Positions 16,270 to 21,127 of a stretch of 34,957 nucleotides of DNA are shown here, in pieces; the stretch's first letter is position 1; each line of letters starts with the position of its first letter. This stretch comes from a virus (Duplodnaviria; Heunggongvirae; Uroviricota; Caudoviricetes): positions 1 to 34,957 of IMG/VR virus record IMGVR_UViG_3300029085_000005. One strand, given 5' to 3'. A model generated the notes under the pieces. That model saw only the letters and a program-made list of their open reading frames with translations. It searched no databases and was not told the DNA's origin. Both the position numbers and the translations under genes were made by a program.

Positions 16270-16508
16270 CTCACAATTCAGTAAGTTGACAGTTGCCTGT
16301 CAGACTGGGCATTTGTTAAAAAAATTTCGCATGGTGAATCCCCCTGAGCGGAGGGGCGACTGGTGACGGTATAATCTCTGATTATCAAAACGAGAATGAC
16401 GCGGGTTTAGTGGCACCGGGCTGAACTCACCGGGAGGCACCCGGCACCATGTGCATGATGATACAGATACGCGGCTTTAGCCCCTCTCCGGAGGGGTTTT
16501 CTTGTGGG
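16270..16508 (+). repeat. structured non-coding module, copy B (paralogue of copy A)
   Basis: Begins ctcacaatt; TTGACA inside the palindrome tgacagttgcctgtca; gcatggtgaatccccctgagcggaggggc; consensus TATAAT (ggtgacggtataatc); ctgaactcaccgggaggcacccggcaccatg; ends gcccctctccggaggggttttcttg. Blocks collinear with copy A, variable sequence between them. Confidence 0.5.
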
Positions 16509-16731
16509 CAAAAAAAGCCCGCGCTGGGAGACGCGGGCGGCAAGGAATAAACAATAAAACGTGAAGTAATATTTCAGCTGGCGAATAATACCCCATAGTA
16601 ATCACTCTGCGCAACTGCGCGGTCTTTTTCGAATTGCGGGCTGTCGTCTCTCTTCTGCCATTGTCCTGTAACTTCCGGACTTCAGCCCGCTCCTTATTTT
16701 ACTCACAATATTATCCCGGCCGGGAGGATTC

Positions 16732-16959
16732 ATGGCATTTAAACACTATGACGTGGTCAGGGCGGTATCGCCGTCAGACCTTGCGAAACGACTGACACAA
16801 AAACTGAAGGAGGGCTGGCAGCCGTTTGGTAGTCCGGTGGCCATAACCCCTTATACCCTGATGCAGGCGATTGCAGCAGAAGGTGATGTGGTGGTCAGTG
16901 GTGCAACTGAGCCGGATTGGTACTACGTCATCGTACTGGCCGGGCATTCCAGGCCATAA
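16732..16959 (+). CDS. small hypothetical protein upstream of the holin (possibly DUF1737-like)
   Basis: 75-aa ORF preceded by GGGAGGA; the family call is a weak recollection only. Confidence 0.4.
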   Translation: MAFKHYDVVRAVSPSDLAKRLTQKLKEGWQPFGSPVAITPYTLMQAIAAEGDVVVSGATEPDWYYVIVLAGHSRP

Positions 16960-17227
16960 AAGACGGTCTGGCAGTGGGACTAAATGCACTGACGCTGACG
17001 GATATTACCAAAAATGCAACGTATGGCGTTGAGATAGAAAGTCTGGTGCTGGAGATAAATGCACCGGCATCATCATAAAAAGTGAGCCAGTCAAATGGAA
17101 GGTATCGTTAAACTCACCGGTAGTGTCAGTGGGTCGTCTGAGACGCCTGCATGAGTTATCAGAGCCATCAGTACTTAACTGGTGGCTTTTTTATTGTTGT
17201 CAGCTTCCGGATAACGGGAGACGGGGT

Positions 17228-17443
17228 ATGTACCAGATGGAAAAAATCACAACAGGTGTGTCATACACCACGTCAGCGGTGGGAACGGGCTACTGGTTCC
17301 TGCAGTTGCTGGACAGGGTTTCCCCGTCTCAGTGGGCGGCAATAGGCGTGCTGGGGAGTCTGCTGTTTGGGCTGCTGACATATCTGACTAACCTGTATTT
17401 CAAAATCAAAGAGGACCGGCGTAAGGCGGCGCGGGGAGAGTAA
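17228..17443 (+). CDS. S: class II holin, S21-like pinholin with dual-start motif
   Basis: Internal Met of ORF 17123..17443 gives [71 protein letters not shown] (71 aa, two TM segments, Met1/Met4 dual start, charged C-terminus), closely resembling phage 21 S21 from memory. Confidence 0.8.
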
Positions 17444-17447
17444 AGTG

Positions 17448-18338
17448 ATGAATAAAAAATATGAACTGGTTGTTAAGGGGATAAATAATTACGGGGATAA
17501 GGTTACTGTTACTGTGAAGCCGGAAGGTGACGGGCAAGCGTCGCTGTTGTTGCCAGATGTGGCGATTAGTCTTGACCGTACTGAAGGTGCCACGCTGGAG
17601 TTTTACGAAGCTGAGGCGAAAAAGCAGGCGAAGCAGTTTTTCATGGATGTTGCTGCCGGGTTATGTGAAGGGGATGGTCCGTTGCCGGAAAAGCGCCCCG
17701 TAATTTTAGAGGCGCAGGATGTGTTGATAACCTACAAAGGAAAGCTACCGGGAAGAATTACTTGTTCTCTGAAGATGCCGCCGTCAACACTGCGGTCAGA
17801 AAAAGATGATGTTGAATCACGTATTGAAAAACTGGAGAGCTACGTCGTTGAGCTGAATAAGAAATGGTCGATATTGGTGCCTTCTGGCGATGAAAAGCAG
17901 TTTGCTGCGTTTGACGATTATTGTCGGAAAGTGATGAGCAGAAATCTCGCAGAGTGTTTCAGTATTCATAATGATAATTTCAGTGACCCGGAATGGGAGT
18001 GTAACCGGCCATCCTTTGTTGTATCCGGTGATGCTGGGAAAATAACCATCTCAGAAAATGGGAAAGTAACACCTCCATCGCACCAGCACAGTGAGGAGCT
18101 CATTGAATTTGCCATTGATTACCTGAAGAACAATAAAAAGCAGGGGCTGATGAAGCGCGTTGGCCGTTGCATGGGATATCTGCAGGTAGCTGCTGAGATT
18201 GAAGCGCTGGCCAGTGGTGCTGATAAGGATGCAATTGTGCGGGAGGCTTTTCTTCGTGATTTTAATACTCCACCCTTTAAAAAAGTGCCGGCTTACTGGC
18301 TTCATCCGGGGCTGACTTATCTTAAAGTGCGTATTTAG
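17448..18338 (+). CDS. hypothetical 296-aa soluble protein inserted between holin and endolysin (unknown function)
   Basis: ORF 17445..18338 (GTG at 17445, ATG at 17448) starts a few nt after the holin stop and ends about 35 nt before the endolysin start. No TM segment, signal peptide or motif recognised; visibly AT-richer than the flanking genes. Confidence 0.55.
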   Translation: MNKKYELVVKGINNYGDKVTVTVKPEGDGQASLLLPDVAISLDRTEGATLEFYEAEAKKQAKQFFMDVAAGLCEGDGPLPEKRPVILEAQDVLITYKGKLPGRITCSLKMPPSTLRSEKDDVESRIEKLESYVVELNKKWSILVPSGDEKQFAAFDDYCRKVMSRNLAECFSIHNDNFSDPEWECNRPSFVVSGDAGKITISENGKVTPPSHQHSEELIEFAIDYLKNNKKQGLMKRVGRCMGYLQVAAEIEALASGADKDAIVREAFLRDFNTPPFKKVPAYWLHPGLTYLKVRI

Positions 18339-18374
18339 TGGGCCAGGGACAGCGGCTGAATATTTAATATATCC

Positions 18375-18908
18375 ATGAACACCAAAATCAAATACGGCCT
18401 GTCGGCTGCCGTTCTGGCGCTGATTGCCGCTGGTGCGCCTGCGCCTGACATTCTCGACCAGTTTCTGGATGAAAAGGAAGGCAACCACACCACAGCATAC
18501 CGTGATGGTGCGGGTATCTGGACCATCTGCCGAGGTGCCATCATGGTGGATGGTAAGCCTGTGATTCCTGGCATGAAGCTGTCGAAGGAAAAATGCGACT
18601 GGGTTAACACTATCGAACGGGATAAGGCGCTGGCGTGGGTGGAGAAAAACATCAGAGTGCCACTGACCGAACCCCAGAAAGCGGGGATCGCGTCATTCTG
18701 TCCGTACAACATTGGTCCCGGTAAGTGTTTCCCGTCGACGTTTTACAGACGAATTAATGCTGGTGATCGAAAAGGTGCCTGCGAAGCGATTCGCTGGTGG
18801 ATTAAGGACGGTGGCAGAGACTGCCGTATTCGTTCAAACAACTGTTACGGTCAAGTATCCCGTCGTGACCAGGAGAGCGCGCTGGCGTGCTGGGGTATCG
18901 ACAGATAA
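18375..18908 (+). CDS. R: SAR endolysin (R21-like, T4-lysozyme fold, GH24)
   Basis: N-terminal signal-anchor-release segment (LSAAVLALIAAGA) and catalytic E-8aa-D-5aa-T motif in LDEKEGNHTTAYRDGAGIWTICRG. Confidence 0.85.
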   Translation: MNTKIKYGLSAAVLALIAAGAPAPDILDQFLDEKEGNHTTAYRDGAGIWTICRGAIMVDGKPVIPGMKLSKEKCDWVNTIERDKALAWVEKNIRVPLTEPQKAGIASFCPYNIGPGKCFPSTFYRRINAGDRKGACEAIRWWIKDGGRDCRIRSNNCYGQVSRRDQESALACWGIDR

Positions 18909-19064
18909 GCAGAATATTTTGCTGAAAAATGAGGAATGGCCACGCGGGCGGATAACACGAAATCCTGCGAACTGGCGAAACGTAAGTGAATAAAAGTAAA
19001 AACCCCGTTTGTTGGCACCAAGCGAGGTTTTGTGTTTCTGACCTTGAGTAAGGCAAGGGAGAAC

Positions 19065-19247
19065 ATGGCGAAGTATAAACGAATTCTGTTGAGGTTGACT
19101 ATGAAAAATGGCCTTGAACTGAAAGCGCCTGTAACTGATGACATCAGCAGAGCACTGGCTTTTGCCATTAAGTGGGTGGCGGTCGGTGTTGCTGTGTCCC
19201 CGATGCTGTATGGGCTGGCAAAACTGGTCATTGCGTTGAAATCGTGA
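19065..19247 (+). CDS. small membrane protein (about 60 aa) between endolysin and Rz
   Basis: Internal ATG of ORF 19032..19247 preceded by AAGGGAGA; [60 protein letters not shown] with one C-terminal TM segment. Confidence 0.4.
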
Positions 19248-19261
19248 AGGGAGGATTAAGC

Positions 19262-19393
19262 ATGTCAGACAAACTCATAACGCTGGCGAAGATCCTCTGT
19301 GTAATTGTCGGCATTTCATTTTCACTAATGCTGGTTGCTCTTTTTCTTTCCATGGCCTGGATGATGTTGTCTTCGTCGGGGTTGCTGGGGTGA
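19262..19393 (+). CDS. small hydrophobic peptide (about 43 aa) between endolysin and Rz
   Basis: Internal ATG of ORF 19172..19393 preceded by GGGAGGA; [43 protein letters not shown], a single TM segment. Confidence 0.4.
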
Positions 19394-19404
19394 ACATAAA
19401 CCGA

Positions 19405-19860
19405 ATGCTTTCCGCGTTTATCGTTATTCTGCTGGTGGCCTGTGGTGCGCTGTGGATGGCAACAGACCATTACCGTGATAACGCGATTACCTACAAAGCG
19501 CAGCGCGATAACAAAGCCAGTGAACTGAAGCTGGCGAACGCAACCATTACTGATATGCAGGTGCGCCAGCGCGATGTTGCTGCACTCGATGAAAAATACT
19601 CAAGGGAGTTAGCTGATGCGAAAGCTGAAAATGATGCTCTGCGTGATGATATTGCCGCTGGTCGTCGTCGGTTGCGCATCAGAGCAGTCTGTCCAGCCGT
19701 GCGTGAAGCCACCGGCACCACCGGCGTGGATGATGCAGCCCGCCCCGGACTTACTGACGCCGCTCAACGGGATTATTTCACCCTCAGAGAGCGAATCGCA
19801 ACCAGCGACAGAATGATTCGGGGATTGCAGGAATATATCCGCACCCAGTGCATTAAGTAG
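19405..19860 (+). CDS. Rz: Rz i-spanin
   Basis: ORF 19390..19860 from its internal ATG: N-terminal TM anchor ([17 protein letters not shown]) followed by a coiled-coil-type periplasmic domain; the embedded +1 lipoprotein ORF confirms the Rz/Rz1 arrangement. Confidence 0.8.
19616..19816 (+). CDS. Rz1: Rz1 o-spanin lipoprotein (embedded in Rz, +1 frame)
   Basis: Signal peptide with lipobox ([14 protein letters not shown]), Pro-rich mature region; the true start may be one of the downstream Met codons. Confidence 0.7.
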
Positions 19861-19883
19861 TCTTTTTATTATCCGGAGGATGT

Positions 19884-20108
19884 ATGAAGAAATTACTGGT
19901 AACCGTAAAGCCCTTTAACGGAACAATTCCGTTCCGGGTTTTACAGCGTGGGCGTGTTCTGGCTGAAGGCACATTCAGTGGTAAATGCACGGAATGTTAT
20001 TCACGAACATATGAAGTGGATGCCACGGATGAAGAAATCTCTGTTGAATGTGATCTGAATGCAAATATGGCGGGGATTGTATCAGCGACATTGTTGCCTG
20101 TTTCCTGA
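19884..20108 (+). CDS. hypothetical small protein
   Basis: 74-aa ORF immediately after Rz, preceded by GGAGGA; no family recognised. Confidence 0.4.
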   Translation: MKKLLVTVKPFNGTIPFRVLQRGRVLAEGTFSGKCTECYSRTYEVDATDEEISVECDLNANMAGIVSATLLPVS

Positions 20109-20149
20109 ATGACATAGAATGTCTCCGGGTACCCAAAAAGGAGATAATT

Positions 20150-20362
20150 ATGTTTATTGCGGAAGGATTAGAGCCAGATCCAATCAACAAAGGTTGGGTT
20201 AAAGGATGGGCTGTTGTTAAAGGATCGCCATGGCATCTTGTAGGCGTCTATGCAACAAAAGAGGTTGCCGAGACAAAAGCAAAAATGGTTGGCGATGGAT
20301 ATGAAGTGCATTACGGCTCTTATCGAAAGGGAAGCGATGATTTTGTATGGAGTGAGCAGTAA
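20150..20362 (+). CDS. hypothetical small protein
   Basis: 70-aa ORF preceded by AAGGAGA; followed by a strong intrinsic terminator. Confidence 0.4.
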   Translation: MFIAEGLEPDPINKGWVKGWAVVKGSPWHLVGVYATKEVAETKAKMVGDGYEVHYGSYRKGSDDFVWSEQ

Positions 20363-20382
20363 CCTGATACCTGTGATTATTA

Positions 20383-20408
20383 AACCGCCTCATCATGGCG
20401 GTTTTTTT
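20383..20408 (+). terminator. intrinsic terminator ending the lysis region
   Basis: aaccgcctcatcatggcggttttttta: 7-bp stem aaccgcc/ggcggtt with T-tract. Coordinates approximate. Confidence 0.6.
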
Positions 20409-20439
20409 ATGTCTGGCTGACGGGTCCTCCCGGTGGGGT

Positions 20440-20600
20440 GGGGCTGTACACGGGGCGGGCGGCGCGGAAAAAGGCGCATTTTTGTGATTTTATCGTCATC
20501 ATCATCATAATGGTAACTTATTGTTTTTAATGTGTTTAGCATTAAAAAGATGATGATTGCGGTTGATTTTTGTTCGACATCTTTATATGGCGGCATTTCT
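20440..20600. other. cos-like region (putative cosN and cosB) upstream of the small terminase gene
   Basis: GC-rich acggggcgggcggcgcgg resembling lambda cosN (GGGCGGCGACCT), followed by an AT-rich segment cgtcatcatcatcataatggtaacttattgtttttaatg resembling lambda cosB/IHF-site sequence; position matches lambda. Boundaries approximate. Confidence 0.4.
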
Positions 20601-20650
20601 TTACAAAAAAAGAGCCACTTTTGTTCAGCGGTTTATGTGGAGGGATGTAA

Positions 20651-21127
20651 ATGGACGGCGAGCTGAAAAATATGAAGTTAAATATTAATCAACTGGCAGC
20701 CCTTTCAGGTCTGCACCGGCAGACTGTTGCCGCCAGAATGGCGGATGTTCCTCTTGCACCAGGCAGTAATGAAAAGAAAAAACTGTATCTCCTGACGGAT
20801 TTGATTATTTCGTTGCTGGAAAAACCACCGACTTCCGAAGATGAAGAGATGAACCCACATGATCGGAAGGCATGGTATCAGTCCGAGCGCGAGCGTCTTA
20901 AATTTCAGCATGAAACTGTTCAGCTTGTGCCTGTCAGTGATGTCAGGCGGTCCTTTTCTGTCGTGGTGAAAGCGATAGTTCAGGTACTGGAAACCTGGCC
21001 TGACCGGCTGGAAAGGGACAGAGGGTGGACCGCATCACAACTGAATGAAGTACAGATTGTGGTTGATGAGATCCGCGACACACTGGAAAAGGCAGTCATT
21101 GACTGTTGTGATGAGGCCGATATGTGA
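20651..21127 (+). CDS. terminase small subunit (Nu1-like, N-terminal HTH)
   Basis: MKLNINQLAALSGLHRQTVAARM HTH parallels the lambda Nu1 N-terminus (MEVNKKQLADIFGASIRTIQNWQ); overlaps the start of the large terminase. The true start may be the Met 7 codons in. Confidence 0.7.
   Translation: MDGELKNMKLNINQLAALSGLHRQTVAARMADVPLAPGSNEKKKLYLLTDLIISLLEKPPTSEDEEMNPHDRKAWYQSERERLKFQHETVQLVPVSDVRRSFSVVVKAIVQVLETWPDRLERDRGWTASQLNEVQIVVDEIRDTLEKAVIDCCDEADM

Follow-up and report, generated by a model that had tools for sequence, protein, structure and literature searches.

Conserved genes for two predicted membrane microproteins, accompanied by a terminator-like hairpin, lie between endolysin and Rz in a lambdoid Escherichia coli prophage

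Antiholins and dual-start holins, such as S21 71/68 and lambda S107/S105, are small inner-membrane proteins of phage lysis cassettes that govern the timing of lysis through helix-helix contacts. Morons of lambdoid phages (lambda bor and lom, HK97 gp15) bring their own promoter and a downstream terminator and are expressed in the lysogen; in HK97 the moron product gp15, whose gene lies among the tail genes, is a small exclusion protein of the inner membrane. The Mu releasin gp25 (DUF2730) has an N-terminal transmembrane segment in N-out/C-in orientation and a 73-aa acidic tail; this small protein, for the most part in the cytoplasm but tethered to the membrane, is encoded no more than a few genes downstream of the endolysin, occurs with both signal-anchor-release (SAR) and soluble endolysins, and is accessory to the holin-endolysin-spanin pathway (PMC9239132). 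Type I toxin-antitoxin loci are a further point of reference, as hokW-sokW of the Shiga toxin 2 (Stx2) prophage Sp5 illustrates that a type I peptide can help phage release (PMC8621323). Here we analysed IMG/VR record IMGVR_UViG_3300029085_000005, a lambdoid E. coli prophage of 34,957 nucleotides (nt) that is referred to throughout, at its full length, as the window. Its lysis region lies entirely on the + strand, and between the endolysin gene R and the spanin gene Rz it holds two small open reading frames (ORFs), ORF-A and ORF-B, which are genuine phage genes under purifying selection.

An earlier note on this DNA had described a gap of about 480 bp between R and Rz containing two ORFs of about 60 and 43 amino acids (aa), each with a strong Shine-Dalgarno (SD) sequence and a single predicted transmembrane segment, and this description was borne out. 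The gap measures 481 bp with Rz read from its GTG at 19390, and 496 bp with Rz read from the ATG at 19405 chosen by the Prokaryotic Genome Annotation Pipeline (PGAP). The coordinates in the note begin at the GTG of a longest open frame; the longest frames, both from GTG, are 19032..19247 (71 aa) and 19172..19393 (73 aa). The ATG codons at 19065 and 19262 are the PGAP starts in identical or near-identical prophages (WP_001446668.1 and WP_001280932.1, both annotated 'hypothetical protein'). With these starts, ORF-A (60 aa) occupies 19065..19247 (+) and ORF-B (43 aa) 19262..19393 (+), and a non-coding stretch of 156 nt separates R from ORF-A.

The A protein carries a net charge of +7 and is predicted to be tail-anchored, with a basic N-terminal head of about 30 aa followed by a C-terminal transmembrane helix. 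Its best 19-residue Kyte-Doolittle window scores 1.88 at residues 38-56, and in the AlphaFold2 model a short helix at the N-terminus precedes a long one, modelled with confidence, at residues 23-59; the model holds nothing informative about the fold. The SD of A, GGGAG (19057-19061), stands 3 nt 5' of the ATG. Because an invariant GAGG (19091-19094 in the window), followed after 6-9 nt by ATG, makes a good internal start at Met13 (19101), A may have two starts. The A-to-B spacing is 14 nt and includes the SD of B, GGGAGG (19249-19254), 7 nt 5' of its ATG. B has a predicted single N-terminal transmembrane segment (best 19-residue window 2.89, residues 11-29) with a conserved VGISFS motif of the GxxxS type, and GxxxS motifs are conserved in both proteins (G41/S45 in A, G17/S21 in B). 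Beyond the transmembrane segment A and B have at most about 8 residues, and neither has a lipobox. The stop codon of B overlaps the GTG start of Rz (GGGGTGA); a B-Rz fusion produced by -1 frameshifting at this sequence was considered and set aside as implausible on topology.

Evidence that both are genes came from family matches and from allelic variation. A matched phrog_1115 over its full length (residues 1-60, E = 2.6e-42), with additional matches to the related families phrog_4493 and phrog_3246, and B matched phrog_4906 over its full length (residues 1-43, E = 2.1e-23); neither phrog_1115 nor phrog_4906 has an assigned function. About 220 related loci supplied an allele set of 38 distinct A and 27 distinct B sequences. 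In the called frames the ratio of nonsynonymous to synonymous substitution rates (dN/dS) was 0.26 for A and 0.28 for B, and the other five frames gave 0.5-4.0, the exception being the codon-3-aligned antisense shadow frame of B at 0.32. Third positions dominated the variable sites (14/6/28 by codon position in A, 23/13/26 in B), while length, start codon and SD were retained through every one of these alleles. Homologues were recovered down to about 55-65% identity with the motif core still conserved. The earlier note had named homologous prophages without coding conservation as the finding that would speak against it; among the prophages compared, coding conservation is clear. Two long minus-strand ORFs, 18851..19231 and 19228..19470, were weighed as genes and rejected as shadow frames: dN/dS was 0.5-0.6 for the shadows of A, the shadow of B is the codon-3-aligned frame, and one of the two ORFs extends through the hairpin described below into R.

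The genes themselves are not new, since both fall into established PHROG families and all copies carry the annotation 'hypothetical'. Searches of A and B against Pfam, NCBIfam, PADLOC and PDB sequences returned nothing above noise, the only hits being DUF3930 (E = 0.08) and viral VP4 (E = 0.59). Literature searches by accession, peptide string, hairpin sequence and position found no paper on either protein, and the supplements of the ribosome-profiling (RIBOseq) small-gene paper on the Sakai strain contained no matching peptide, accession or coordinate.

Compared with the known lysis proteins, A and B show partial likenesses. Like the dual-start holins, A has candidate in-frame starts at Met1 and Met13, each with an SD, and the second transmembrane domain of the S21 holin bears a GxxxS-type motif, as do A and B. 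Unlike holins and antiholins, however, A and B come from two distinct genes, have a single transmembrane segment apiece and match no Phage_holin family of Pfam and no 'lysis' PHROG; they also accompany a non-homologous holin set, and the cassette of the window already has an S21-type holin. They resemble Mu gp25 as small membrane accessory proteins encoded just past the endolysin, but A combines a basic N-terminal head with a C-terminal transmembrane segment and a charge of +7, there is no DUF2730 match, and the cassette of the window has its own pinholin. Spanins differ from A and B in that the latter have neither a periplasmic coiled-coil domain nor a lipobox, and the true Rz/Rz1 pair follows at 19390-19860. 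Taken together, A and B belong with the small accessory membrane proteins of phage late operons, and it is rather unlikely that they are something more distinctive.

Upstream of A lies a hairpin flanked by an A-run and, on its far side, a T-run (18998..19031, AAAACCCCG...CGGGGTTTT), which the terminator scan also calls. All 19 of its sequence variants fold, at -15 to -22 kcal/mol, and the window allele, which has one C.A mismatch, folds at -11.2 kcal/mol. Compensatory changes were found in the inner stem and, in one variant, in the outer stem. The hairpin looks like a two-way intrinsic terminator and forms the 5' boundary of a mobile module. In 41 IMG/VR loci there is a block with 83% identity to the segment 18995-19360, which comprises the hairpin, the leader, A and the greater part of B. 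There the block stands after a non-homologous lysis cassette whose two holins belong to phrog_198 and phrog_217. The endolysin of this cassette is a phrog_315 member that we take, on our own reading of its sequence, to be of GH108 type, no family search having named GH108, and the block is followed by a gene for a 60-aa lipoprotein in place of Rz/Rz1.

Distant A homologues, at 57-74% identity, extend this picture to four further settings. In one (locus L231) the homologue lies between a SAR-type lysozyme gene and Rz/Rz1, with a DNA methylase gene between A and Rz; in another it follows an endolysin-like gene, presumably of GH19 type by our own reading, and overlaps a lipoprotein gene. In L230 the homologue, which has its own downstream terminator, separates the gene of the major tail protein from that of the tail chaperone, and in L227 it comes after a tail-fibre-like gene. 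In all four settings a hairpin of this kind is found 30-45 nt 5' of the start. It is thus present upstream of A in every context, non-homologous lysis cassettes and tail modules alike, and because it accompanies A across all these settings it belongs with A, not with the endolysin. In the literature searched, the fixed association of A with the two-way hairpin and the mobility of this unit between lysis and tail modules are previously undescribed.

Lipoprotein genes recur beside the module. In L183 (3858-4037), and also in L161, the 60-aa lipoprotein belongs to phrog_7528 and has the lipobox LVGC, a mature part of 30 aa and three Cys residues. It lies between B and a homologue of a 74-aa ORF, at the Rz/Rz1 position, and no i-spanin candidate was visible in that locus; this lipoprotein may provide an outer-membrane step that has gone unrecognised, or may act in exclusion. 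In L228 (4001-4335), a distant A homologue of 53 aa ending in RWW overlaps the start of a gene for a 59-aa lipoprotein (lipobox LLTGC). Such an overlap is the usual arrangement of i-spanin/o-spanin pairs, yet A has no periplasmic domain.

In lambdoid prophages, Stx prophages included, the interval from R to Rz is a cargo slot with variable content. The earlier note had taken the canonical S-R-Rz/Rz1 order to run without interruption, a premise that does not hold universally: in Sakai Sp11 the slot carries an antirepressor gene and, after it, ECs_5730, a homologue of B which overlaps the Rz start. Stx1 phages, CP-1639 among them, have at the Rz start the overlap of another small transmembrane ORF, C, which ends in ...IRWW. 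Other slots contain A together with an A-related ORF of 28 aa. Copies that have been rearranged (L040, L081, P0093 and P0098) also occur, as A-B-A', as B split in two, or as a fusion in which frameshifted B is joined to the C-terminal half of A. The rearranged copies point to frequent recombination among hydrophobic repeats. Whatever the cargo, the last small ORF stops no more than 12 nt from the start of the next gene in all loci recovered; in every one of them B or an A-family ORF abuts that start, and the next gene is Rz in cassettes of the S21/R type. A last stop codon within 12 nt suggests that translational coupling into Rz has been preserved. The structure of the R-Rz cargo slot is likewise previously undescribed in the literature searched, as is a candidate antisense promoter, considered below, that is common to unrelated small ORFs.

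The 5' side of the slot is marked by a mosaic linker of 60 nt, here called X, immediately past the R stop codon (18908..18967). X also stands directly after R in Stx phages and in Sakai Sp11, and it is about 80% identical to a stretch that follows the lipoprotein gene, downstream of A-B, in L183 and L161. By this distribution X looks like a conserved recombination joint of the mosaic. Two further observations concern the small ORFs of the slot. The Sakai Sp11 homologue ECs_5730 (L223, 44150-44296, O157:H7) was added only by a later re-annotation. Very small transmembrane ORFs ending in ...RWW occur in the slot of L220 (2660-2797, which is CP-1639), L053 and L158, and their stop codon overlaps the start of the following gene (TGGTGGTGA). 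Among them are the C ORF of the Stx1 phages, at 32-45 aa, and the 28-aa A-related ORF (MSAEFIRAMAFSIRIVAIAVLVWAIRWW).

The distribution of the two genes was determined in bacterial and phage genomes. The A-B pair is present in 1036 of 5426 complete E. coli genomes (about 19%), O157:H7 included. Among phage records, B alone occurs in 276, nearly all of them Stx-converting phages in which the ORF is mostly left unannotated, and A occurs in only 14; the plaque-forming phages PhiR5_2 and PhiR12_x carry both. Apart from a few enterobacterial phages that are more distant, homologues were confined to prophages of Escherichia and Salmonella. Since a profile search of 1.8 billion representative proteins gave only 17 clusters, the family is narrow. 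A profile scan of genome contigs with the A alignment yielded no confirmed locus, and the same scan with P0248 yielded nothing.

Signals for expression on the sense strand were then considered. No sigma-70-like promoter was found on this strand between R and A or in five other contexts (six scanned in total). The spacer from the hairpin to the ATG, at 33 nt, is too short for a promoter, and a by-eye search for one overlapping the hairpin or at TATAAA (19074-19079) found no acceptable -35. The 5' leader of A (19032..19066, +) is predicted to fold into a stem that pairs the SD and the AUG (RNAfold, -9.3 kcal/mol). SD-occluding stems, at about -9 kcal/mol in most lineages, are also predicted in L161, L183, L157, L230 and L231, and are weak or absent in L227 and L228. 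In lambda, Q-modified polymerase resists terminators, and only such a polymerase would be expected to pass the hairpin. The combination of a terminator-like hairpin, an occluded SD and no detected promoter suggests tight silencing in the lysogen and expression restricted to the late phase.

Our preferred reading, to which we assign a probability of roughly 0.4, treats A and B as inner-membrane microproteins that are expressed late, are kept off in the lysogen and would serve as dispensable auxiliaries of envelope disruption. It is drawn from their position and orientation within the lysis operon, the coupling to Rz, their membrane character, their GxxxS motifs and the three types of endolysin found nearby. 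The hairpin, A and B together form a small mobile accessory module occupying the R-Rz slot. In the lysogen this module would be silenced by the terminator-like hairpin and the SD-pairing stem, and it would be transcribed only upon readthrough by the Q-antiterminated late polymerase. B would then be translated back-to-back with Rz, and A and B would reach the inner membrane alongside holin, endolysin and spanin, where they may tune membrane permeabilisation or the timing of lysis, probably via helix-helix contacts. The proposal of the earlier note that such peptides could be lysis modulators is plausible, given that no promoter of their own was found, that a terminator which Q-modified polymerase is expected to pass lies in front of them and that the B stop overlaps the start of Rz; it is weakened for A by the homologues in tail modules.

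Several observations weigh against an auxiliary lysis role. In K-12 Qin there is no gap, rrrQ being joined directly to rzpQ, and the cassette works without A or B. The two genes assort independently: A occurs without B, B without A, and other small transmembrane ORFs substitute for them. The GC content of A and B is 46-48%, against 53-54% for S, R and Rz, which suggests imported cargo, and the distant A homologues in the tail modules of L230 and L227 are cargo-like and not specific to lysis. Library searches found no similarity of A or B to any holin, antiholin, releasin or spanin family, and no expression or phenotype data were located in the literature searches.

A different account is that the module is a previously undescribed type I toxin-antitoxin-like lock in a late lysis operon, a self-contained unit moving between lysis and tail modules; we regard this as possible and on the whole unlikely. 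A would be membrane-toxic, the C ORF of Stx1 phages would play the same role, and an antisense RNA of about 75 nt, made from a constitutive promoter on the opposite strand within the first codons of the ORF, would mask the SD and start of A. In the lysogen this RNA would neutralise leaky sense transcript; late transcription would titrate it, and the peptide would then damage the membrane. The hypothetical cis-antisense RNA (18990..19065, -) is deduced from a promoter-like element followed by the hairpin and its T-run: it would span the SD and start of A and terminate at the hairpin, and its predicted fold is -18.5 kcal/mol (z = -2.2). Termination in both directions is possible in that an A-run upstream and a T-run downstream of the hairpin are present in all variants, the hairpin has moved together with A into at least five unrelated genomic contexts, and the ribosome-binding site of A is buried in a predicted stem. 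The hokW-sokW locus of Sp5, which aids phage release (PMC8621323), supplies a precedent.

The promoter-like element consists of TAGTCA, a spacing of 18 nt and TATACT (19072..19101, -) and lies within codons 3-13 of A. Distant homologues show the variants TGGTCA or TGGACA with TATAAT or TATACT. Six of the eight A-type lineages shown have their best minus-strand element, with 9-10 of 12 matches, at a distance of 32-48 nt from the hairpin; in L157 and L159, which have a longer leader, the distance is 66-68 nt, and L230 and L228 have a perfect TATAAT on the minus strand. In Stx1 phages, the C-type ORF, which is not homologous to A, has TGnTAAAAT as an extended -10 at 39-43 nt from the hairpin, so that a minus-strand promoter-like element stands at a similar distance in A-type and C-type modules. 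Random window positions reached a score of at least 9 within the distance range in 1.1% of cases and of at least 10 in 0.25%, although both the range and the scoring scheme were chosen after inspection of the data. Codons TAT4, CGA6, AGG10 and TTG11, which surround the -10 and -35, are invariant across five deep lineages, whereas neighbouring Ile and Leu codons vary at the third position, and this pattern indicates constraint at the nucleotide level on the frozen codons. Against this, the promoter-like hexamers fall in strongly conserved codons (KYK, LTM) and are confounded by protein constraint, which may suffice as an explanation, and the frozen AGG10 fits an internal SD for Met13 at least as well as a promoter.

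The comparison with described type I systems is similarly divided. A and B are small and hydrophobic, with one predicted transmembrane helix each, a terminator-ended antisense RNA over the A start is possible, and the A ribosome-binding site lies in a stem. Unlike those systems, however, the module has neither its own toxin promoter nor a long structured toxin leader, with only 33 nt from hairpin to ATG; it sits inside a late lysis operon behind a terminator, not at a free-standing locus; and Pfam, NCBIfam and Rfam gave no homology to Hok/Sok, Ldr/Rdl, Ibs/Sib, TisB/IstR, ShoB/OhsC or Zor/Orz. Rfam, run at permissive thresholds over 16500-21000, gave no match at the locus. The suggestion of type I toxin-like peptides in the earlier note receives partial support from features that the note does not mention: the two-way hairpin always beside the ORF and the antisense promoter-like element at a set distance speak for it, and the lack of a sense-strand promoter and of similarity to any known toxin or antitoxin family speaks against it.

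It is about as doubtful that A and B are cargo unrelated to lysis, that is, moron-like membrane proteins in a permissive slot of the late operon that might act in superinfection exclusion or interfere with a membrane system of the host or of a rival prophage. Like morons, they are small, lower in GC than the adjoining lysis genes and placed at mosaic joints among late genes, and A homologues occur in classic moron positions, between tail genes (L230) or after a tail-fibre-like gene (L227). The same slot houses an antirepressor gene in Sakai Sp11 and a DNA methylase gene in L231, and the occurrence of the two genes is patchy, with independent assortment of A and B. A moron, however, normally has a promoter of its own and is switched on in the lysogen, whereas here no sense-strand promoter was detected in six contexts and the terminator-like hairpin lies directly upstream of A, not downstream. 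PADLOC gave no match for A, B or related small ORFs, and the abutment of B or an A-family ORF on the next gene start in every locus recovered is a further point against this account.

That the ORFs are non-functional, as chance frames or decaying remnants in a recombination scar, is close to excluded: the rearranged copies (A-B-A', split B and the B-A' fusions P0093 and P0098) and the dN/dS of 0.32 in the antisense shadow frame of B, near that of the called frame, would fit this view, but the values of 0.26 and 0.28, the dominance of third-position variation, the retained length, start and SD in all 38 A and 27 B alleles and the PHROG matches of both proteins contradict it.

The genes flanking the slot form a recognisable lysis cassette. 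The S21-type class II holin, a pinholin with a dual start at Met1/Met4, is encoded at 17228..17443 (+; PF04971, 7.2e-33; phrog_20/9876 holin). The lysozyme R (18375..18908, +; PF00959, 5.6e-23) has an Ala/Gly-rich, weakly hydrophobic N-terminus (best 19-residue Kyte-Doolittle window 1.74) and is a SAR-type candidate by this N-terminal sequence. The i-spanin Rz (19390..19860, +; PF03245, 1.2e-46) contains the embedded gene of the o-spanin Rz1 (19616-19816, +; PF06085, 4.9e-18). Between holin and lysozyme lies a gene of the YdfR/DUF1327 family (17445-18338, +; 297 aa), which begins 2 nt past the holin stop; its product opens with a DUF1327/YdfR domain (3.9e-40), continued by a long C-terminal extension (phrog_1085, E = 9e-188). 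The S-R junction is thus also interrupted, by a gene comparable to ydfR in K-12 Qin that is variable in length, or missing, in related loci.

Other features were noted around the cassette. About 40 nt 5' of the holin start, a 12-bp terminator-like hairpin with a T-run (17161-17189, +) could be the late-operon terminator that is read through by Q. After Rz follow two further small ORFs, 19884-20108 and 20150-20362 (+; phrog_2571 and phrog_4280; GC 44%), with a strong terminator-like hairpin downstream of them (20382-20404); ORF 19884-20108 is shared with L161, where it is placed after the lipoprotein gene and the linker. A weak Rfam match to OmrA-B at 16510-16598 (-), with 25.2 bits against a gathering score of 40 and E = 0.11, is probably due to chance.

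A and B are carried by about 19% of complete E. coli genomes, B is found in most sequenced Stx-converting phages, and both usually go unannotated or are labelled 'hypothetical'. If they tune lysis, the timing of phage and Shiga-toxin release from pathogenic strains would be affected, and lambdoid phages would possess a fourth class of player beside holin, endolysin and spanin. If instead the antisense lock is real, it would represent a new mobile means of silencing a membrane-active peptide in a prophage and a new family of prophage small RNAs, carried by about one fifth of complete E. coli genomes. Should neither the lysis role nor the lock be true, the locus would still illustrate cleanly how a lysis cassette can harbour a cargo slot whose joints are conserved.

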